DNA of 64,000 nt from IMG/VR virus record IMGVR_UViG_3300037067_009442, positions 29,721 to 93,720 of that record; one strand, given 5' to 3'. Both the position numbers and the translations under genes were made by a program. Of this stretch, positions 3,857 through 63,545 are shown piece by piece (positions within the stretch are counted from its first letter, which is position 1; each line of letters starts with the position of its first letter). This stretch comes from a virus. Its lineage: Duplodnaviria; Heunggongvirae; Uroviricota; Caudoviricetes. The notes under the pieces are model-generated. The model was given only the letters and a program-made list of their open reading frames with translations. It had not been told where the DNA came from and did no database searches.

Positions 3857-5085
3857 TTGCAAGAACCTAACTTCCGGGTCATAATAGGTTCCTTGATCTC
3901 TCTTTCACATAAGATCCGTCTCTACCCTAATAAGGAGGCAATGAAGTACTTGGCCAAGTCGGCCGGTACCTCAAGGTTCGCCTATAATTGGGCATTAGCT
4001 CGATGGAAAGAGAAGTACCTAGCTGGTGAGAAAACTTCAGCTTATGGTCTGGACAAGGAATTCAACGCCCGCAAGGGCTCTGACTTCCCTTGGACCTCCG
4101 AGGTTTCTAAATGGGTGACTCAGAAGGCTATTCAAGATCTTGGTGACTCTTTCAAGCGGTTCTTCAAGAAGCTCTCTAGGTATCCTAGGTTCAAGAAGAA
4201 AGGATCTTCTCACGACTCCTTCTATATCAACTCGAACCACCTAAGGATCTCCGGTAAGTATCTGAAGCTTCCGAAGCTTCAGGGTCATATCAAAATGGCT
4301 CAGACCCTCAGGTTCAAGGACGGTGAGGTTAAATTTGCTGTGATCTCCCGAGATTCCTGTGGGGATTGGTACGCTTCTTTTAGCTTTGAGATCTCAGAAG
4401 GGTCTTATGTCTACCCACACAAGTGCGAAAACCAAGCAGTTGTAGGGGTTGACTTAGGGATCAAAACGTTAGCTACTTGCTCCGATGGTACAAAGTTCGA
4501 GAACCCAAAGCCTTTGGCTCGGGCCCAGCGCAAGCTCCGAAGGAGCCAACGTCGCCTTGCCAGGAAAGTTAGGGGTTCCAAGAACCGAGCCAAAGCGAAG
4601 CTTTTGGTAGCTAGGGTTCATCGGAGGGTAACCAGAGTCAGGTTGGATTCAATCCATAACCTAACTTCTTGGTTGGTCAAAACCTTCCGGTTCATTGGGA
4701 TCGAAGATCTGAACGTTCAAGGGATGATCAAGAACCACAAGCTTGCACGGGCGTTAGCCGATGCAAGCTTCGGTGAGATCCGTCGACAAACCGAGTATAA
4801 GTCGAAGCTATCTGAATCTCATGTAGTGGTAGCTGATCGGTTCTATCCGTCCTCGAAGAGGTGTTCCGATTGTGGAGAAACCCTAGAGAGGCTGGACCTA
4901 TCCGTGAGGGAATGGTCGTGCCCCTCTTGTGGAGTCATTCATGATCGTGATGAGAATGCCTCAACTAACCTAAGACTCGTCGCCGAGAGGTACTCGGAGA
5001 CTATAAACGCTTGTGGAGAAGCTGTAAGGCCTGTGCAACGCCGCAAGGCGGGGCAGAGGCGAGCTTCATTGAAGCAAGAATCAGT
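3857..5085 (+). mobile_element. Stand-alone tnpB element (IS1341-like, no tnpA), copy 1
   Basis: Homology with copy 2 runs from about ATAATAGGTT to ...GAAGCAAGAATCAGT (5085). Promoter-like TTGCAA-N17-CATAAT at 3857-3885. Ends are approximate. Confidence 0.7.
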
Positions 5086-5113
5086 GAATCAGGTAGGAGA
5101 GGTTCTTACTTGA
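3893..5113 (+). CDS. tnpB: TnpB (IS200/IS605 or IS607 OrfB-type) RNA-guided nuclease, copy 1
   Basis: N-terminal HKIRLYPN...RFAYNWAL, RuvC VGVDLG / IGIEDL / DRDENA, CSDC...CPSC zinc finger. Start placed at TTG 3893 by alignment with copy 2. Confidence 0.92.
   Translation: MISLSHKIRLYPNKEAMKYLAKSAGTSRFAYNWALARWKEKYLAGEKTSAYGLDKEFNARKGSDFPWTSEVSKWVTQKAIQDLGDSFKRFFKKLSRYPRFKKKGSSHDSFYINSNHLRISGKYLKLPKLQGHIKMAQTLRFKDGEVKFAVISRDSCGDWYASFSFEISEGSYVYPHKCENQAVVGVDLGIKTLATCSDGTKFENPKPLARAQRKLRRSQRRLARKVRGSKNRAKAKLLVARVHRRVTRVRLDSIHNLTSWLVKTFRFIGIEDLNVQGMIKNHKLARALADASFGEIRRQTEYKSKLSESHVVVADRFYPSSKRCSDCGETLERLDLSVREWSCPSCGVIHDRDENASTNLRLVAERYSETINACGEAVRPVQRRKAGQRRASLKQESVNQVGEVLT
4975..5105 (+). ncRNA. 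Putative omega/reRNA scaffold and guide overlapping the tnpB 3' end (copy 1)
   Basis: Conserved between both copies past the RuvC-III codons, diverging abruptly after AAGCAAGAATCAGT, the usual position of a TnpB omegaRNA. Boundaries inferred. Confidence 0.55.
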
Positions 5114-13039: not shown

Positions 13040-14269
13040 TTGCTCTCCCCTCAACTCTAAGTTATAATAGGTTTCCTTGATTTCTCTTTCTCACAAGATC
13101 CGGCTCAACCCTAATCGGGAGGCAATAATTTACTTGGCCAAGTCGGCCGGTACCTCAAGGTTTGCCTATAATTGGGCATTAGCTCGATGGAAAGAGAAGT
13201 ACCTAGCTGATGAGAAGCCTACGGCTTTCCGCCTGAACGCGGAATTCAACGCCCGCAAGGGCTCTGACTTTCCTTGGACTTCCGAGGTATCCAAGTACTG
13301 CTGCCAGCAAGCCATTCTTGATCTTGGTGACTCCTTCAAGAGGTTCTTCAAGAAACTCACCAAGTACCCTAGGTTCAAGAAGAAAGGGGTCTCTCGTGAT
13401 TCCTTCTACCTAGGGACCGATGTCATCAAGGTATCAGGGAAGTACCTGAAGCTTCCGAAGCTTCTTCAACCAATCAAGATGGCTCAGGAGATCCGATTCC
13501 CCGAAGGTCGGATCCTCTCTTGTACAATCTCCAGGGACTCAGTAGGGGATTGGTACGCTTCATTCTCGATAGAGATCTCAGAAGGATCTTATGTCTACCC
13601 GCACAAGTGCGAAAACCAAGCAGTTGTAGGGGTTGATCTAGGGATCAAGACACTAGCTACTTGCTCCAATGGTACGAAGTTCGAGAACCCAAAGCCCTTG
13701 GCTCGGGCCCAGCGCAAGCTCCGAAGGAGCCAACGTCGCCTTGCCAAGAAGGTGAAGGGTTCTAAAAACCGAGCCAAAGCGAAGCTTTTGGTAGCTAGGG
13801 TTCATCGGAGGGTAACCAGGATCAGGTTGGATTCAATTCACCAAATGACATCCTGGTTGGTCAAAACCTTCCGGTTCATTGGGATCGAAGATCTGAACGT
13901 TCGAGGGATGATCAAGAACCACAAGCTTGCACGGGCGTTAGCCGATGCAAGCTTCGGTGAGATCCGTCGACAGATTGAATATAAATCGAAGCTATCTGAA
14001 TCTCATGTAGTAGTAGCTGATCGGTTCTATCCGTCCTCGAAGAGGTGTTCCGATTGTGGAGAAACCCTAGAGAGGCTGGACCTATCCGTGAGGGAATGGT
14101 CGTGCCTCTCTTGTGGGGTCATTCATGATCGTGATGAGAACGCCTCGATTAATCTAAGACTCGTCGCCGAGAGGTACTCGGAGACTTTAAACGCTTGTGG
14201 AGAAGCTGTAAGGCCTGTGCAACGCCGCAAGGCGGGGCATAGGCGGGCTTCATTGAAGCAAGAATCAGT
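13040..14269 (+). mobile_element. Stand-alone tnpB element, copy 2
   Basis: TTGCTC-N17-TATAAT at 13040-13068; shared 3' end ...GAAGCAAGAATCAGT. Ends are approximate. Confidence 0.7.
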
Positions 14270-14294
14270 TCATCTCATGGGGGTTAACTCATGA
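13077..14294 (+). CDS. tnpB: TnpB RNA-guided nuclease, copy 2
   Basis: Same motifs with intact D-E-D triad; C-terminal half nearly identical to copy 1 at DNA level. Confidence 0.92.
   Translation: MISLSHKIRLNPNREAIIYLAKSAGTSRFAYNWALARWKEKYLADEKPTAFRLNAEFNARKGSDFPWTSEVSKYCCQQAILDLGDSFKRFFKKLTKYPRFKKKGVSRDSFYLGTDVIKVSGKYLKLPKLLQPIKMAQEIRFPEGRILSCTISRDSVGDWYASFSIEISEGSYVYPHKCENQAVVGVDLGIKTLATCSNGTKFENPKPLARAQRKLRRSQRRLAKKVKGSKNRAKAKLLVARVHRRVTRIRLDSIHQMTSWLVKTFRFIGIEDLNVRGMIKNHKLARALADASFGEIRRQIEYKSKLSESHVVVADRFYPSSKRCSDCGETLERLDLSVREWSCLSCGVIHDRDENASINLRLVAERYSETLNACGEAVRPVQRRKAGHRRASLKQESVHLMGVNS
14159..14289 (+). ncRNA. Putative omega/reRNA scaffold and guide (copy 2)
   Basis: As for copy 1, with a different downstream guide segment. 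Confidence 0.55.
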
Positions 14295-53223: not shown

Positions 53224-53854
53224 GTTGGCCATGACTGATCTCGAAGAGTTCTGGACCGATATCCGCCCGGAGAGGCTCCCCTCAGGTCCAAATGTCGTTT
53301 CCAAAGACGTGTTCAAGCAAGCCCTGAGGGATAGCGCCAGCGCCCGAAGAGAGGGTGACACTAAGAAGATCGAACTCCTCAATGAGGTAATCGAACCCTT
53401 CCAAGCCGCTTGCCCTCACCCCTTGGAGAGAGGGCACCTGCAAGTAGCCTCTGTCTCTTCAGCAAAAGTCCAAGTAGGAGATAGGGTTCGTTGGTGCTTG
53501 GACTGCAACAAGATCCTATCCATCAACGGAGTACCCTACTCGAAAGTAGTGCCCAATGAAGATCACATTTTACAACGTCGATGATACCAGGATCCACCCG
53601 AAGAACTCCCTATCCCTTCCGAAGGAGTTACCTGCTGTCCCACAGGTAGGTAACTACCTCATCATTCATGGGGATGGCGGGTCTGAGCACTACCAAGTCA
53701 TCAATGTAACCTTCGTCCTCGAGGAGCGTGAGACCCACCAAGGGAAGGACTACAGCAGCGAAAGTATTGTCGTCGGGGTTCGAGTAATCAACCGAGGGGA
53801 CATTAAATAGACTGGTTCGCTCCGGTAGCCTTTTTGAATGGTGTACCTCAGGGG

Positions 53855-54547
53855 ATGGATCACAACCTAAGGTATGATGCTGACCAAGCCCAACAGGACT
53901 ACAGCGACTGCGTCAAGGGCTACCTCTATCAACTAGATAGGGTGCTAGGTCACATCAAAGAGTCAGTTAGCGCTGGGATCTACCCAGTGCCCTTGAGAAT
54001 GGGCTACGCTCTTCACCCAAATACCCTAGCAGCCCTAACGGATAAGGGATTTGTAGTCGAGCTTGATAGCCATGAAAACTACCTAATCAGCTGGGTAAAT
54101 CACCTTGAGTTGGAGTCGTCAACCAAGGTGGTAGATGCCTCCGGATTTACTCGATGGATCAACACCTCAGGGAAGCTACATCGAGTAGACGGCCCCGCCT
54201 TCGAGGCTGACCTTGGTTACAAGGAGTGGAGGGTAGATGGAAAGCTACATCGAGTAGACGGTCCGGCTCGGGACTACGGGAATGGTACCACAGAGTGGTA
54301 CCTAGAAGACCAACTACATCGAGTAGACGGTCCGGCTATCACCTATACCAATGGGTCTACAGAGTGGTTCCTCAATGGGGAACGCCATCGAGTAGGAGGC
54401 CCTGCCCGCGAGAGTACCGATGGGTCTACAGAGTGGTTCCTCAATGGGGAACGCCATCGAGTAGGAGGCCCTGCCCTTGAATGGCCTAACGGTCATAAGC
54501 AGTGGTGGGAGAACGGAACCTTCCTAAGGAGCATCGGCCCCCTATGA
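53855..54547 (+). CDS. Protein with LHRVDGPA (MORN-variant-like) 23-aa repeats
   Basis: Five xHRVxGPA units (69-bp repeats, about 54170-54520); ATG 53855 follows TGGTGTA. Confidence 0.8.
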   Translation: MDHNLRYDADQAQQDYSDCVKGYLYQLDRVLGHIKESVSAGIYPVPLRMGYALHPNTLAALTDKGFVVELDSHENYLISWVNHLELESSTKVVDASGFTRWINTSGKLHRVDGPAFEADLGYKEWRVDGKLHRVDGPARDYGNGTTEWYLEDQLHRVDGPAITYTNGSTEWFLNGERHRVGGPARESTDGSTEWFLNGERHRVGGPALEWPNGHKQWWENGTFLRSIGPL

Positions 54548-54844
54548 GTATTGCATCAAAGCAGAATGCTTGGTAGGTACTAAGTAGCATGAAACTCCGA
54601 CAGCATAGAGGCGGATACGCAGAGTCAATGTCCACGGTTATTGACATTGAACCCACACGGGCAGCCTTACTTCAAGCTATCCTCGATTCGGGTATGATCG
54701 GGCTTCCAAGTCCACTGACCGAGGACCATATCGGGATCACCTTCGCAAGCATCGAACCACGAAGCGGGTGGCATACTCACATCGTGACCGTCAAGGATTG
54801 GGGTGTCTACGGGTACACTGATGGCCCCCTGACCACCTAAAGAA

Positions 54845-56328: not shown

Positions 56329-57849
56329 CCCTGGATGATGAAGCCTACCAGATGGCTTTGCTACAAGAAACTAAGGGCAAAAGACGGCGAGCTCTGGATG
56401 ATGAAGCCTACCAGATGGCTTTGCTACTCGACACCATCATTGTCGCTTCATGGACGTCTCTGGATGATGAAGCCTACCAGATGGCTTTGCTACTCGTCCG
56501 AGGTATAACAGTCCACTAGGACTAGACCCTTCTCTGGATCACGAAGCCTTCCAGAAGGCTTTGCTACAAAAGTTGACCTTGCAATCTACACTGTTCCTGC
56601 ACACTCTGGGATACGAAGCCTTCCAGAAGGCCTTGCTACTATCCGTCGACAAATTAACTCAAATCAAGGCATTTGCCCTCTGGATGACGAAGCCTACCAG
56701 ATGGCTTTGCTACATGGTCACTGAACGTCGAAGGGTTGTTGTGACGCACTCTGGGATACGAAGCCTACCAGATGGCTTTACTACTTGGACTATCTTGGTC
56801 TCCAGATCGAGCCTTAGCCCTCTGGGATACGAAGCCTACCAGATGGCTTTGCTACGAAAGATACCCCATGACCAATACATTGACCGACAGCTCTGGATCA
56901 CGAAGCCTACCAGATGGCTTTGCTACCGACCTAATCAAGCGCTTCGATAACCTGCTCCCTCTGGATGATGAAGCCTACCAGATGGCTTTGCTACGTCGTC
57001 GTGTCGCCCGACACGAGAGCCCTGTACATCTCTGGAATACGAAGCCTACCAGATGGCTTTGCTACGCCAGGAGGTCCGTAGTCGTCGAGTTAGATTTTGC
57101 CTCTGGAATACGAAGCCTACCAGACGGCTTTGCTACCCGGCCCCGTCAACACGGTAGTGAGCGGCGACAGTCTCTGGAATACGAAGCCTACCAGACGGCT
57201 TTGCTACCTCGAGGCTGGAGCTTAACGGAGTCGATGATTCCCCTCTGGGATACGAAGCCTACCAGATGGCTTTGCTACACGAACAATCAAACCGAAGTAG
57301 TCGTCTCTCTGGAATACAAAGCCTACCAGATGGCCTTGATACTCGACGCCATCATTGTCGCTTCATGGACGTCTCTGGAATACGAAGCCTACCAGATGGC
57401 TTTGCTACCGCGAGGTCGAGCCTAACGTTCGCTCAGGTTGTCCCACTCTGGAATACGAAGCCTACCAGATGGCTTTGCTACGGGGGGGAACCCCGAGAAA
57501 ACAAGGAGAAGAAGCAATCTCTGGATCACGAAGCCTACCAGATGGCTTTGCTACTGCACCTCCAAGCCCACCTGGACCAACCCGATTCGAGCGCTCTGGA
57601 ATACGAAGCCTACCAGACGGCTTTGCTACCGCTCCAACCACGCAGGGATGGGCTGGGCTCCCGATCTCTCTGGATCACGAAGCCTACCAGATGGCTTTGC
57701 TACGTTGTGGGTGGTGAGCAAGAGGGTACCGCCGAGGAGTGCTCTGGATCACGAAGCCTACCAGATGGCTTTGCTACGGACTATGGAATCCACGAGCGAT
57801 GGATCGGCGTCCACTCTGGATGACGAAGCCTACCAGATGGCTTTGCTAC
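56329..57849 (-). CRISPR. CRISPR array, 22 repeats of 36 nt and 21 spacers of 27-39 nt
   Basis: Plus-strand repeat CTCTGG(ATGATG/ATCACG/AATACG/GATACG/ATGACG)AAGCCTACCAGATGGCTTTGCTAC with an AAGCC/GGCTT hairpin. Minus orientation is inferred from the adjacent cas gene and the GT-start of the reverse complement (GTAGCAAAGCC...CCAGAG). Confidence 0.97.
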
Positions 57850-57869
57850 TTGGACTGTCAAACATCAGT

Positions 57870-57941
57870 GAGTGCCCTTACTTGAAGGGCACTCTGCGAG
57901 AGGTGGACTACTCCTATCAGATCGCATAGGAGTAGTCCACC
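57870..57941. other. Two perfect hairpins between cas12m and the array (10-bp and 16-bp stems)
   Basis: GAGTGCCCTT-acttg-AAGGGCACTC (57870-57894) and GGTGGACTACTCCTAT-cagatcgc-ATAGGAGTAGTCCACC (57902-57941). Confidence 0.85.
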
Positions 57942-57948
57942 GGTCAAC

Positions 57949-59919
57949 TCACGAAGCTTGCATTAACTCAAGAGGTTCGTGAGTGCGAGCGGGTACCGGG
58001 TTTGAGGCTCCACTGGACCGCTCGAACTCCTGAAGGAGGTTCATGCAGTTGTTCCAGTCCTGATCAACTTCCTTCCCCGTAGTAGGACACAAGTGAACAT
58101 AATCTCCCTTGGTATCCCACCCATGGTCTTGCCCACAGTGGTTGCAGGTGATGGTCTTCTTCGCAGCAGGTAGAACTTCAATGCGGTGCTTGCCAACCTT
58201 CTCGATGATGACAGACCGTAACTCGCCCGGAGAAGCCTCCTTCGAAGCTCTCAACTCCTCTGAACTGAAACCCTCCTCACCAACATCAGGTCGACGTGTC
58301 AATTGAGCAAGACTCATGTCATCAATGATGACCACATTGTACCGGGCAGAGATAGACTTGGCGACACTACGGTACAGGTCCTTCCGCTGGTTCTGACACT
58401 TGTCCCGTAGGTTGCTGAGGTACTCTGTAAGGTGCTTGTCCTTCTTCCGCCAAATCTCGAGGTACCAAGCTAGCTTAGTGATGTAGTTGGCTCCTGGAGT
58501 AAACGAAGTGATCACCTCATAGGACGGAAGAGGACCATGAGTTGAAGTAGCCTTTCGATAGGACTGCCACAGGGACTCCGCCACCCCCCGACCAATGACC
58601 TCATCACGAAGCCGTAAGGCAATCATCGCCAACCGAGTATGACTCCGCCATTGGGCAATCGTGGTGGTCATCTCTTGGAGCCACTCAGGGACCTCCTGGG
58701 ACTCTTTCAGGAACCGAACAAGCTCTCCACGAGCTAGGTCGAAGTGCTCGTCACAGAACCCCTGTAGCCTCCCCACGAGGGCGAAGGCCCCTTTGATCTT
58801 CTGAGGTAGATGGACGATCTCCTCATGCCCCTTGGTATCGACCAAGTAGGCTACCCGAACGTCCCCCGAAGGAAGAGAACGCCATCCGAAGTTGATTGCA
58901 CACCTGCCCGTAGTAGGGAGCATCGGACTTCCCTGACTCGGATCCTTTGACATCCTTAGCAAGTCCCGCTTGCTCGGTTGAAGGACATCAAACTCAGGAG
59001 AGTCAATGCAAATCTTCAACTCGTACTCTGCCTTCAACCCCAGCTTGGTGACCTTGAGGTACACCTCCCGGATAGATCCAACCGAAGGTAGAGGACGGTC
59101 AAGCTTGATTGGAAGGTCAAGCCAGATAGGCTGACGACCCTCAGTCCCAATCCGAAGGTGAGCTACCGTGTAGGCATGCTCCCATCCACTGCGAGTATTC
59201 CAAGTGTTGTCGGGTAAGGGATCGATCTTGAAGTGAGTGTCCCCAAGGTAGACCTTCGAAAGGTCAAGCCCCCCTTGAATCTGACCCCCAAGGCACCCCT
59301 CACCCTTGAACTTCTTGAACCGAGGATCCAACTTGGCGGTCTTGCTTGCCTGCTGAACCGCTCGCTCAATCCGCAAGTAGGTCGTCCAATAGACCCCACT
59401 TGAGGCCCGAGCTGCCTTGCAACGCTCAAGGTCAACCGCATCAAGCTGGATGCAGGCAAGAGAGAAGTCCCGCTGAACCGACTGCGGAAGAACCTCAAGC
59501 TCCTCTTGAGTAAGTGGTCGCTGTGCCGGTGGATCAGACTTCGAATCCTCCCGAGGACAGGACATCGGCTTGGCTATCGTCCGCTCAGCCTTAACCGAAG
59601 CATTCACCACCTTACGCTCAGCCTTGAGAACCTTGAGCTGAGCTACTAAGGGATCGTTCTTCACCTTGGTCCGAGCTTTCGCATTCTCCTTCTTCTTCTG
59701 ATCCTCAAGCTCATCAATCTGGGCATTGAGCTCAGCTTGTCGAACCTCAAGGGCCGCCAAGGTAGGGAAGGTCTGGGTTCGTAGGGTTCGATACTCCCCC
59801 CGTCGCTGGTTCTCCAACTCAATGAGTCGGTTGTAGTAGGCGTGAGCCAGCCTCAGTTGACCAAAGGCATGCTCAGGGAGAGTACTCAGGTGTACATGAT
59901 AACTGTATATCTTGGGCAT
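57949..59919 (-). CDS. cas12m: Type V-M (V-U1) Cas12m-like CRISPR effector with non-canonical, probably DNase-inactive RuvC
   Basis: 656 aa next to a CRISPR array. Motifs I recall from Cas12m: QLRLAH, long coiled coil, GVYWTTY, RFKKFKGEG, LRIGTEGRQPIWLDLPI, AINFGWRS (RuvC-I, D to N), QWRS, RKDLYR, VIIDDMSL (RuvC-II, E to D), ASPGELR, CNHC zinc ribbon, DQD (RuvC-III). Confidence 0.85.
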   Translation of the reverse strand: MPKIYSYHVHLSTLPEHAFGQLRLAHAYYNRLIELENQRRGEYRTLRTQTFPTLAALEVRQAELNAQIDELEDQKKKENAKARTKVKNDPLVAQLKVLKAERKVVNASVKAERTIAKPMSCPREDSKSDPPAQRPLTQEELEVLPQSVQRDFSLACIQLDAVDLERCKAARASSGVYWTTYLRIERAVQQASKTAKLDPRFKKFKGEGCLGGQIQGGLDLSKVYLGDTHFKIDPLPDNTWNTRSGWEHAYTVAHLRIGTEGRQPIWLDLPIKLDRPLPSVGSIREVYLKVTKLGLKAEYELKICIDSPEFDVLQPSKRDLLRMSKDPSQGSPMLPTTGRCAINFGWRSLPSGDVRVAYLVDTKGHEEIVHLPQKIKGAFALVGRLQGFCDEHFDLARGELVRFLKESQEVPEWLQEMTTTIAQWRSHTRLAMIALRLRDEVIGRGVAESLWQSYRKATSTHGPLPSYEVITSFTPGANYITKLAWYLEIWRKKDKHLTEYLSNLRDKCQNQRKDLYRSVAKSISARYNVVIIDDMSLAQLTRRPDVGEEGFSSEELRASKEASPGELRSVIIEKVGKHRIEVLPAAKKTITCNHCGQDHGWDTKGDYVHLCPTTGKEVDQDWNNCMNLLQEFERSSGASNPVPARTHEPLELMQAS

Positions 59920-59951
59920 CTACATCTTCCACTGGGGCTGTTAGATACCCT

Positions 59952-59980
59952 ATCCTACGTATGACGACTCCAGATCTCAA
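59952..59980 (-). promoter_or_regulatory. Class-1 promoter driving cas12m (with a short 5' leader)
   Basis: TTGAGA (59980-59975)-N17-TAGGAT (59957-59952); ATG at 59919 preceded by GGAAG. Confidence 0.8.
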
Positions 59981-60581: not shown

Positions 60582-63545
60582 GTGCCAAAGTCCAAAGTCA
60601 AGGCCATCAATGGAATCAGCTTCAAGACGGGTACTCACCCCCTAAGAGACGTTGGAGACTTCCGTGTTTGGCAACGAGCATGCCTCAAGAAGTTGGACTT
60701 ATCCAGAAGAGCTGTAGTTCAATCTCCTCCTGGATCAGGTAAGTCTACGGTAGCGATGGCTCGTGGAGCCATCCTCTTAGCTCGAAACCCCAAACTAAAG
60801 CACTTAGTTTCTGTCCCACAGAACGTCATTGCAACTTCATTCACGAAAGAGAGCTTAGAGGCCAAGATCCCCGGAGTCTCTTGGCCGAAAGTCGGCAAGC
60901 TTACTTGGAGGGTAGACTCAAACCACATCGAGTGTGAAGCCAAGGTTGACAAGCTCTACCGTTTCATCACGGAAAGAGTTCGTAACCCGAATGAGAGGTT
61001 GATGGTATGTACTCATCAAGCCCTCACCGCAGTCTTCAAGCGCCTCAAAGCAGAGAGTAAGCTTTCAGCTCTCAAGAACCTACTCCTGACCATCGATGAG
61101 ATCCACCACTCGGAGTCCATGATCTTCGAGGAGAACGAGGAGGAAAGGATCCTTGAGAACAAGCTTGGGGAGATTGTCGGTCATTTTTTCAAGCATGACC
61201 TTCGTCTGGACATGTTCACAGCCACTCTGATGCGGTCCAACCTCTCGGACATTATCCCTTCCAAGTATGCAGAAGGGGCAGATTATGCCAAGTACACTCG
61301 GTACATGGATGAGCATCTTGAGGAGTTGAACTTCAAGGGTGGGGTTCACATCAGGTTCCTCATCTGTAGCCCTGAAGAAGCCCTGAAGCACGTTTACAAT
61401 GAAGACGCTTCAATGAAGACGTTCGTCTACCTCCCCCCGGTAGGTTCTTGGATCATGAACCGGTATAGGGACAAGTACTCGATGCTATCTCGGCTTCAGA
61501 GAGTTCTCCGTGCTAAGACCCTCAGAACTGTCGACCTAGTGACTGAGGGAGACCGAGACGCACGAAAAGAGGTGTTCCTCAAGAGCATTGGGGGTGATGA
61601 GCCTGACCTTCTATGGGCACTCAACATGTGCAAAGAAGGGTTTGATTGGCCTAATGCGAGTCGGTCGGTTGTCATTGGGCCACGTGGTTCGATGGTTGAT
61701 ATAATCCAGACACTAGGGCGCCTGTTACGGTCAGGTAAGAAGGATCGGGTTGAGTTCAATATCGTCTTCCCAATAGCAGGAAAGCCCGACCCAGAGCAGG
61801 TCCAAGAGTACCTGAACATCATAATCCAAAGCTTGATAGTCGAGTGGTGCTTCAGTCGCCCTAAGGTGAAGAATAAACGTGAGCAGGAAGTAATTGACCA
61901 CGCCTTCATTGAGAACCCATCCCTGGGTCAGAAGGCACTTCAGGCTTGCATCACTGCTGGCATCAACTCGGAGGGTGATGTAGACGCCGTAAAGGCTATC
62001 AGGAAGGGGTTGGACCGCTTTGACCTGAATAAAATACCTACTGAAGACAAGGACATCATGGCACCTATCCTGAGCCGAATGGTGGCTAGTGGGTTAGGGG
62101 GTCTTGGATCCACCTCAGGTAAGGTTCAACTAGTCAAGAATGTATTCGGTAGGGTTCGCACGTGGGGTGCTTCGTTTGGGTACCAACACCTACGAGAGAT
62201 TAGAGAGAGTCAGAATCGTAAGGGTTGGCTAACCGAGGATCAGATCTGGGAAGTAGCGAAAGCTTGGAAAGAACGTACGGGTAAGTGGCCTTCCTTAGAA
62301 ACTAAAGGTGCAATCCCTGAGCTACCTAGGTCTACCTGGATTGGAGTTAATGCAGCCCTCAGGGGGGGTATTAGAGGGTTACCAAGTGGATCCTCTTTGG
62401 GTGCTCTCCTAGCTTCAAGGGGAGTGCTGAATCATAGTAGTAAAGTGGCCCTGACAGAGGACAAGATCTGGAAAGTAGCAAAAGCTTGGAAAGAACGTAC
62501 GGGTAAGTGGCCTTCCCAGGATACTAAAGGTGAAATCCCTGAATTACCTGGTAATACCTGGATTGGAGTTAATGCAGCCCTCAGGGGGGGTATTAGAGGG
62601 CTACCAGGTGGATCCTCTTTGAGTGTTCTCCTAGCTTCAAGGGGGGTGCTAAATCAAGGTAGTAAAGTGGCCCTAACCGAGGATCAGATCTGGGAAGTAG
62701 CTCAGGCTTGGAAAGAACGTACGGGTAAGTGGCCTACTTTGATCACTAAAGGTGAAATCCCTGAACTACCTGGTAATACTTGGGGAGGAGTTAATGCAGT
62801 CCTCAGATTTGGTCATAGTGGGTTACGAGGTGGATCCTCTTTGGGTGCTCTCCTAGCTTCAAAGGGAGTGCTGAATCGTAGTAGTAGGGTAGCCCTGACA
62901 GAGGACAAGATATGGAAAGTAGCGAAAGCTTGGAAAGAACGTACGGGTAAGTGGCCTACTTTGATCACTAAAGGTGAAATCCCTGAACTACCTGGTAATA
63001 CTTGGATTGGGGTTAATGCAGCCCTCAGTGGGGGTTATCGAGGGCTACCAGGTGGATCCTCTTTGGGTGCTCTCCTAGCTTCAAAGGGAGTGCTGAATCG
63101 TAGTAGTAGGGTAGCCCTGACAGAGGACAAGATATGGAAAGTAGCGAAAGCTTGGGAGAAGCGAACGGGTAAGTGGCCTACCTCGGATACTAAAGGTGAG
63201 ATCCCTGAGCTACCCGGCCCTACTTGGGCCACGCTTAATGCAGCCCTCAGATGGGGTTCTAGAGGGTTTCCAGGTGGATCCTCTTTGAGTGCTCTCCTAG
63301 CTTCAAGAGGTGTGTGGAACCAATGCAGTAAAATTACCCTAACCGAAGATCAAGTCTGGAAAGTAGTGAGAGCTTGGAAGGAGCGAACGGGTAAGTGGCC
63401 TACCTTAGAGACTAAAGGTGAGATTCCTGAATTCATAGGCGCTACTTGGGCCGGGATTAATAAAGCCCTCAGAGACGGTCGTCGAGGGCTCCCAGGTGGG
63501 ATCACACTCTCTGGGCTCAAGGAGAAGCTATCTAAGTGCGAGTGA
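60582..63545 (+). CDS. Superfamily 2 helicase with six C-terminal tandem repeats
   Basis: SPPGSGKS, DEIH, TAT, EGFDWP, QTLGRLLR; then 6 x 74-aa repeats. Confidence 0.88.
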   Translation: MPKSKVKAINGISFKTGTHPLRDVGDFRVWQRACLKKLDLSRRAVVQSPPGSGKSTVAMARGAILLARNPKLKHLVSVPQNVIATSFTKESLEAKIPGVSWPKVGKLTWRVDSNHIECEAKVDKLYRFITERVRNPNERLMVCTHQALTAVFKRLKAESKLSALKNLLLTIDEIHHSESMIFEENEEERILENKLGEIVGHFFKHDLRLDMFTATLMRSNLSDIIPSKYAEGADYAKYTRYMDEHLEELNFKGGVHIRFLICSPEEALKHVYNEDASMKTFVYLPPVGSWIMNRYRDKYSMLSRLQRVLRAKTLRTVDLVTEGDRDARKEVFLKSIGGDEPDLLWALNMCKEGFDWPNASRSVVIGPRGSMVDIIQTLGRLLRSGKKDRVEFNIVFPIAGKPDPEQVQEYLNIIIQSLIVEWCFSRPKVKNKREQEVIDHAFIENPSLGQKALQACITAGINSEGDVDAVKAIRKGLDRFDLNKIPTEDKDIMAPILSRMVASGLGGLGSTSGKVQLVKNVFGRVRTWGASFGYQHLREIRESQNRKGWLTEDQIWEVAKAWKERTGKWPSLETKGAIPELPRSTWIGVNAALRGGIRGLPSGSSLGALLASRGVLNHSSKVALTEDKIWKVAKAWKERTGKWPSQDTKGEIPELPGNTWIGVNAALRGGIRGLPGGSSLSVLLASRGVLNQGSKVALTEDQIWEVAQAWKERTGKWPTLITKGEIPELPGNTWGGVNAVLRFGHSGLRGGSSLGALLASKGVLNRSSRVALTEDKIWKVAKAWKERTGKWPTLITKGEIPELPGNTWIGVNAALSGGYRGLPGGSSLGALLASKGVLNRSSRVALTEDKIWKVAKAWEKRTGKWPTSDTKGEIPELPGPTWATLNAALRWGSRGFPGGSSLSALLASRGVWNQCSKITLTEDQVWKVVRAWKERTGKWPTLETKGEIPEFIGATWAGINKALRDGRRGLPGGITLSGLKEKLSKCE
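62229..63530 (+). repeat. Six tandem 222-bp coding repeats
   Basis: Units start near 62229, 62451, 62673, 62895, 63117 and 63339 (LTEDxIWxVAKAWKERTGKWP...GLPGGSSL). Confidence 0.93.

Follow-up and report, generated by a model that had tools for sequence, protein, structure and literature searches.

A type V-M CRISPR-Cas12m locus with a long, variable array on a probable huge-phage genome

Introduction

What would a phage gain from a CRISPR (clustered and regularly interspaced short palindromic repeats) system that binds DNA without cutting it, and at which targets would such a system be aimed? A locus that raises this question lies in a 64,000-nucleotide stretch (the window), which corresponds to bases 29721-93720 of a single 228,619-bp IMG/VR virus record (IMGVR_UViG_3300037067_009442; record class linear) from a groundwater metagenome. 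The locus consists of cas12m, a gene for a 656-residue effector, followed by a CRISPR array, and an earlier note on the window had read it as a phage-encoded, Cas12m-like silencing system. Our analysis suggests that it is probably a type V-M CRISPR-Cas12m locus on a huge phage, with an effector that would bind its targets without cutting them and would be aimed at competing elements. Coordinates are those of the window unless they are assigned to the contig, by which we mean the whole record.

Compact type V effectors with an array and without adaptation genes are present on huge phages, where Cas-Phi (Cas12j) and Cas-lambda are thought to act against competitors. Both of these are active nucleases from other Cas12 families.

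The effector is a Cas12m protein by sequence and predicted fold

The cas12m gene occupies 57949..59919 on the minus strand. Its product carries the motifs AINFGW (residues 341-346), IIDD (531-534) and DQD (619-621), which contribute the RuvC triad N343/D533/D621, and a TNB zinc ribbon with three cysteines (C592, C595 and C611). The earlier note had listed the open reading frame (ORF), the motifs and the 22-repeat array, and all its coordinates and counts were correct. The PADLOC profile Cas12u1, named when type V-M was still V-U1, matches residues 2-632 with an E-value of 4e-84. The best sequence matches in the PDB are to Cas12m (23vw, E 1.4e-45; 8pm4, 8e-16; 8hhl/8hio, 3e-15), and the TNB domain is detected by Pfam PF07282 (E 0.0016) and NCBIfam guided_TnpB (9e-10). 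An AlphaFold2 model built from 12 homologues has a mean predicted local distance difference test score of 79.7. The four leading Foldseek matches of this model are Cas12m structures (E 1e-24 to 2e-19), followed by Cas12f, first at 4e-9, and also by Cas12o, TnpB and Cas-Phi; Cas-Phi and Cas-lambda rank far lower, at E about 1e-6 to 5e-5. Judged by its sequence and modelled structure, the effector is a true Cas12m of type V-M, which bears out the family assignment in the earlier note. Every V-M feature that can be tested was found at the locus, which is a virus-borne Cas12m of known type.

The family is large, with 950 cluster representatives at E<=1e-30 in an exhaustive HMMER search. The subclade of the phage protein is small: P0002-P0004 are 63-73% identical to it and P0007 about 45%, and outside the four-member subclade relatives are only about 30-40% identical. 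P0007 (533 aa, L014:4482-6408) seems broken, its C-terminal part being encoded further along in another frame. The phage protein contains two insertions, at about residues 118-165 and 447-485.

Expression of the locus

A copy of a repeated promoter element precedes the gene (59952..59980, minus strand). It reads TTGAGA-N17-TAGGAT with a conserved TACG, and leaves a 32-nt 5' untranslated region before the cas12m ATG. The contig contains this 29-nt element, TTGAGA-N13-TACGTAGGAT, 23 times, where shuffled sequences would give 0.2. Each of the 22 copies elsewhere has an ATG 5-8 nt past the -10 hexamer, which predicts leaderless mRNAs; cas12m, which starts 32 nt past it, is the sole exception. Related loci have other sigma-70-like promoters at the corresponding place. 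Since the element's own repeated promoter stands before cas12m, the gene is, as far as can be read from the DNA, wired into the element's transcription. The genome's own promoter class had been recognized in the earlier note, correctly. Its placing of the gene in an early programme is not supported: sigma-70-like geometry is all that the promoter shows. In the window the copies range from 587 to 59980, and others lie in the rest of the contig; many of them are grouped near a point of divergence at 44.9-49.9 kb.

Between gene and array lies a 99-nt interval (57850..57948, minus strand) that is conserved in three related loci. It contains two strong hairpins of 16 and 10 bp (-51 kcal/mol, z -6.9), after which comes the conserved sequence TGATGTTTGACAG. 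The interval may serve as a terminator or attenuator, in RNA stability, or as the array leader. The loop of its first hairpin resembles the repeat core (ATCTGATAGG compared with ATCTGGTAGG).

The CRISPR array and its repeat

The array (56329..57849, minus strand) begins 99 nt past the cas12m stop codon on the same strand and comprises 22 repeats, each 36 nt long, with 21 spacers of 27-39 nt between them. The minus-strand repeat consensus is GTAGCAAAGCCATCTGGTAGGCTTCGTGATCCAGAG. No gaps are needed to align the repeats of our array with those of two related ones, and their 33 distinct versions share a pseudoknot in which columns 7-11 pair with 20-24 and columns 13-17 with 31-35; 98.2% of the cells are paired. 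Compensatory changes are found in 4 of the 10 pairs, for example CTGG..CCAG in one repeat and CTAG..CTAG in another. As a control, sliding the partners by 1-3 columns gave pairing in 23-62% of cells. The pseudoknot also includes 25 G-U cells that would become C-A mismatches if the other strand were read. These fit only the minus strand, suggesting that the array, like the gene, is read on that strand. The CRISPR RNA (crRNA) of PmCas12m has the same pseudoknot topology (bioRxiv 10.64898/2026.03.26.714355). Each repeat can thus be predicted to fold into an H-type pseudoknot, the 5' handle of a Cas12m crRNA. The natural repeat variants already map which positions of the guide RNA are tolerant and which are constrained.

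No candidate for an anti-repeat or trans-activating CRISPR RNA (tracrRNA) was found within about 4-6 kb on either side, and an Rfam search gave no match. The contig has no second array. Dispersed solitary repeats were ruled out by scanning the contig with a covariance model of the repeat: the 22 array copies were the only matches, the next best having an E-value of 0.41, so that no solitary or repeat-like handle was found outside the array.

Array turnover in a phage lineage

Two related loci show the same order of gene and array with related repeats. One is on a 237-kb ENA contig (L011, protein 73% identical), the other on a 22.9-kb JGI contig (L012, 72%). L011 shares further genes with our contig, including an 83-aa ORF adjoining the array. 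A protein search for related loci gave no further relatives in IMG/VR. No spacer is common to our array and those of L011 or L012.

The repeats of L011 decay with distance from the gene, and in our array the mutated repeat is the last one, at 56329; the gene-proximal end is therefore taken as the young end and 56329 as the old one. A landfill sample contains gene pieces that are 100% identical together with the old-end spacers S20 and S21, and there other spacers adjoin the repeats. Relatives of about 95% identity with yet another spacer occur in peat and sediment samples, and the sample of origin also holds a deletion variant of the locus. All these variants are low-depth assembled contigs of public runs, which speak for presence and not for frequency. 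Internal duplications occur as well: S07 (57343..57372, minus strand) is a near-duplicate of S20 (56428-56457) within a 102-nt duplication of our array, and S11 and S14 form such a pair in L012. The array is dynamic and polarised, and spacers turn over in the lineage.

Such an array implies adaptation somewhere. At E<=1, the Pfam models of Cas1, Cas2 and Cas4 have no match anywhere along the 228,619-bp contig, although control genomes do match, and no adaptation genes lie within 10 kb of cas12m in L011 or L012. The absence of cas1, cas2 and cas4 reported for the window in the earlier note thus extends to the full contig. The CheckV estimate of completeness is about 45%, for a full genome of about 500 kb, and cas1 and cas2 could lie in the remaining 55% or so. 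Spacers could be acquired through a host system or through this missing half of the genome. The earlier note had preferred borrowing of the host Cas1-Cas2. That proposal is not supported, given that none of 185,579 species genomes contains the repeat pattern and that the contig covers less than half of its genome. The pattern was absent from IMG/VR as well, and in metagenomes it was found in only one small related array.

The 83-aa ORF (54589-54840, plus strand) has no assigned family; counterparts of 67-77% identity are located near the far array end in L011 and L029. A neighbouring ORF (53834-54547, plus strand) has a 69-nt internal tandem repeat, and at least eight tandem paralogues of its family lie just upstream of the cas12m region in L011 (L011:479-4235).

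Spacer targets and the question of self-regulation

No protospacer was found for any spacer, and hence no target class or protospacer-adjacent motif (PAM). The whole array gave no match to GenBank phages and one weak chance match to plasmids. Exact 24-mers of S04, S01, S02 and S03 gave no match in IMG/VR, and S20 gave none in JGI metagenomes. Matches were at chance level when our spacers were compared with the related loci and when the spacers of L011, L012 and L029 were compared with our contig. Six-frame spacer peptides matched the contig no better than shuffled controls. The suggestion in the earlier note that host genes are silenced finds no support, since none of the spacer searches returned a target.

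Spacer S04 (57555..57593, minus strand) is informative in another way. Its reverse complement encodes APPSPPGPTRFER, which carries a C-terminal PTRFER tag of the lineage; the tag ends 29 ORFs of the contig. The first 17 nt of S04 are identical to contig positions 144006-144022, at the 3' PTRFER-coding end of a 106-aa ORF (contig 143724-144044, plus strand) outside the window. This is the only exact site. The sequence GGATC flanks it 5' on the guide-like strand, and beyond these 17 nt the 39-nt spacer is mismatched. The other 28 tag-coding sites differ from the S04 seed at 2-6 positions. We also considered S04 as a guide against dozens of tagged genes at once and rejected this idea: the codons used for the tag vary too much, with a match at 1 of 29 sites. 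Because S04 codes for the tag and matches its own genome only in part, it appears to derive from another genome that uses the tag, most simply that of a kin phage or prophage. S04 thereby lends modest support to exclusion of rival phages.

The same spacer bears on a different reading, in which the system is mainly a programmable repressor of the phage's own or host genes and is not directed at rivals. In its favour are the exact 17-nt match to one of the phage's own genes, the guide of PmCas12m, which is only about 17 nt long (bioRxiv 10.64898/2026.03.26.714355), and the tolerance of self-targets by effectors that only bind. However, a self-match is found in 1 of the 21 spacers and covers 17 of its 39 nt, with no PAM found for the system, the 28 other tag sites differ from the seed, and the covariance scan gave no solitary repeat or handle elsewhere in the contig. 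Moreover, the spacers are wholly different between related phages, which fits immunity better than a fixed regulon, and no host was found through the repeat. We regard self-regulation as distinctly unlikely to be the main role of the system, and favour competing elements as its targets.

The carrier of the locus

Several features of the contig resemble those of huge phages. Fourteen tRNA genes, for Tyr, Lys, Gln, Asn, Met, Thr, Glu and Leu, are clustered at contig 223.1-228.3 kb (L010:13142-18301). The 540-kb Lak megaphages have proteins with 37% identity to a 524-aa protein of the contig, and a 417-aa protein has homologues in 506 phage records, from jumbo or T4-like phages. Further genes encode Thg1, an RNA ligase, a dCTP deaminase, a peptide deformylase and several homing (HNH) endonucleases. 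Genes for conjugation or replication are absent from the PHROG and Pfam matches of the contig. The carrier is thus very probably a huge phage.

Capsid, terminase and sheath families gave zero Pfam model matches across the 228 kb, where absence is weak evidence as the contig is a fragment, and no structural PHROG was found among the 29 largest ORFs. A match to phrog_1383 ('virion structural protein') was dropped as a hallmark, as six cellular control genomes match it too. Hence the phage origin assumed in the earlier note is upheld in gene content and relatives, which are like those of huge phages, and not in virion hallmark genes, which neither Pfam nor PHROG detected. The missing families would be expected if the contig were a large plasmid or another element, and type V-M is enriched on plasmids (PMC11656645). 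Against this stand the IMG/VR classification with its CheckV estimate, the 14-tRNA cluster, the homologues that Lak megaphages and hundreds of jumbo or T4-like phages possess, the Thg1, RNA ligase, dCTP deaminase and homing endonuclease genes, and the lack of conjugation or replication genes among the matches. A plasmid or other non-phage carrier is quite improbable, and we continue to treat the contig as part of a huge-phage genome.

Other features were observed on the contig. A separate tRNA with anticodon UUA (L008:11330-11418) would read the stop codon UAA, so that stop codons may be suppressed during part of the phage programme. Two IS605-type TnpB genes are present at 3857-5113 and 13077-14294, both on the plus strand (418 and 405 aa; Pfam OrfB_IS605, Cas12f1-like TNB and helix-turn-helix). 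L012 has an 85%-identical fragment of the phage TnpB; the closest relatives in genomes are only 45% identical, with none higher among the 185,579 species genomes. A 222-nt tandem repeat with 5.4 copies of 85% identity (62235-63431, plus strand) lies inside a 987-aa DEAD/ResIII helicase-like ORF that adjoins the locus.

The RuvC site and the question of cutting

In HMMER alignments N343 falls on H317 of Cas12m2 and on the first Asp of 23vw, whose triad is D/E/D, and the Cas12m2 counterparts of D533 and D621 are D485 and D579. The non-canonical RuvC site described in the earlier note is thus an N-D-D triad by alignment. N-D-D is present in all four full-length members of the subclade, and in 12 of 67 sampled relatives; 32 of these have D-E-D and 13 N-E-D. 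In a quick FastTree tree, which has local support and a midpoint root only and should be taken as a hint, the subclade is a long branch beside D-E-D proteins, and no fewer than five origins are required to explain N-D-D. P0016 and P0017, the outgroup proteins closest to it, come from 2-3-kb contigs without gene context. In the subclade Thr or Leu takes the place of the fourth cysteine of the TNB zinc ribbon (CCCT or CCCL); the pattern is CCCC or HCCC in 57 of the 67 relatives.

Experiments on other Cas12m proteins provide insights into how such a site may behave. Bigelyte et al. tested two N-D-D Cas12m proteins beside D-E-D and H-D-D ones and found that each bound PAM-flanked DNA without cutting it (PMC11013384). 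PmCas12m (N372/D494/D581), whose structure has been solved, is nuclease-dead (bioRxiv 10.64898/2026.03.26.714355), and mutating H-D-D of Cas12m2 to D-E-D did not restore cutting (PMC10442227). By analogy with these tested proteins, N-D-D ones included, the phage effector would bind DNA without cutting it. That it is instead an active nuclease which cuts target DNA like most Cas12 proteins is very improbable: it retains two of the three RuvC carboxylates (D533 and D621) and its nearest outgroup proteins are D-E-D in the quick tree, but the first catalytic Asp is Asn in 4 of 4 subclade members, every Cas12m tested so far has failed on double-stranded DNA whether D-E-D or N-D-D, and D-E-D restoration in Cas12m2 gave no cutting.

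Discussion

Combining these results, we propose how the locus could work. Gene and array would be transcribed from the minus strand behind the phage-specific, sigma-70-like promoter. As in tested Cas12m systems, the effector would process its own precursor crRNA, giving a crRNA with the pseudoknot repeat handle at the 5' end followed by the spacer guide. The complex would then find PAM-flanked double-stranded DNA, bind it tightly and block transcription or replication while leaving it uncut. Its targets may be competing mobile elements, perhaps most likely phages of the tag-using lineage; if they are kin phages, the system would act in the exclusion of rivals. An effector that only binds would make accidental self-matches non-lethal.

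In a more specific version, the huge-phage lineage would maintain its binding-only CRISPR system to fight its kin, take spacers from tag-using rivals, adapt without cas1 or cas2 in the locus, and tolerate partial self-matches such as the 17-nt one or use them to tune a gene. We consider this version unlikely to hold as a whole.

Several points weigh against the proposed function. Besides the lack of protospacers, only 1 of the 21 spacers appears informative on the target. The carrier is identified as a phage from its database class and its gene content, because virion hallmark genes were not found. Non-cutting would be carried over from Cas12m proteins whose identity to the effector does not exceed about 40%. 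The loss of the fourth zinc-binding cysteine, which appears specific to the subclade, may mean that folding or DNA binding is not as in other Cas12m proteins.

Neither an N-D-D Cas12m nor a virus-borne one is new. PmCas12m and PpCas12m (N408/D505/D594, PMC11013384) share the N-D-D triad with the phage protein. They are also alike in the single effector beside an array, the 36-nt repeats, the pseudoknot topology of the handle, the lack of tracrRNA and of adaptation genes, and the Cas12m fold as best structural match. The phage protein differs in its larger size (656 aa), its two insertions, the absent fourth zinc cysteine, an identity of about 30-40%, an N-D-D triad that has arisen separately beside D-E-D proteins in the quick tree, and its huge-phage carrier. 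MmCas12m2 and GoCas12m, which are H-D-D (8hhl, 8hio and 8pm4), give the best Foldseek E-values (1e-24 to 2e-23) and have their domains in the same order, with D533/D621 aligned to D485/D579. In contrast, the first position of the phage triad is Asn and not His, the zinc site is not HCCC, identity in the structural alignment is about 19-20%, and the hosts of those two systems are actinobacterial chromosomes or plasmids.

Type V-M has been found on plasmids and some prophages (2024 review, PMC11656645). Among virus-borne systems, UnCas12m (583 aa, D-E-D) comes from an IMG/VR contig and was tested in 2024 (PMC11013384 supplement), and MvCas12m (610 aa, D-E-D, 8 spacers) comes from the complete genome of myxophage MV-1 (bioRxiv 10.64898/2026.09.14.751636). 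As here, a Cas12m and an array reside on viral sequence without cas1, cas2, cas4 or tracrRNA, and targets were not found. The locus described here differs from both in its N-D-D triad, a far larger array of 21 spacers, a carrier of more than 228 kb and conservation across a lineage.

What deserves attention in this locus is therefore the size and variability of the array, the conservation in a huge-phage lineage, the spacer of kin type and the three-cysteine zinc ribbon. As a divergent and compact DNA binder with such a ribbon, the effector could interest tool builders. The locus leaves the current picture of type V-M unchanged. It adds a lineage-conserved case in which a very large phage carries a CRISPR system that probably does not cut and whose array is variable and unusually long, and it bears on how spacers are gained without adaptation genes, on the aims of phage-borne silencing and on what the protein needs from its guide RNA.

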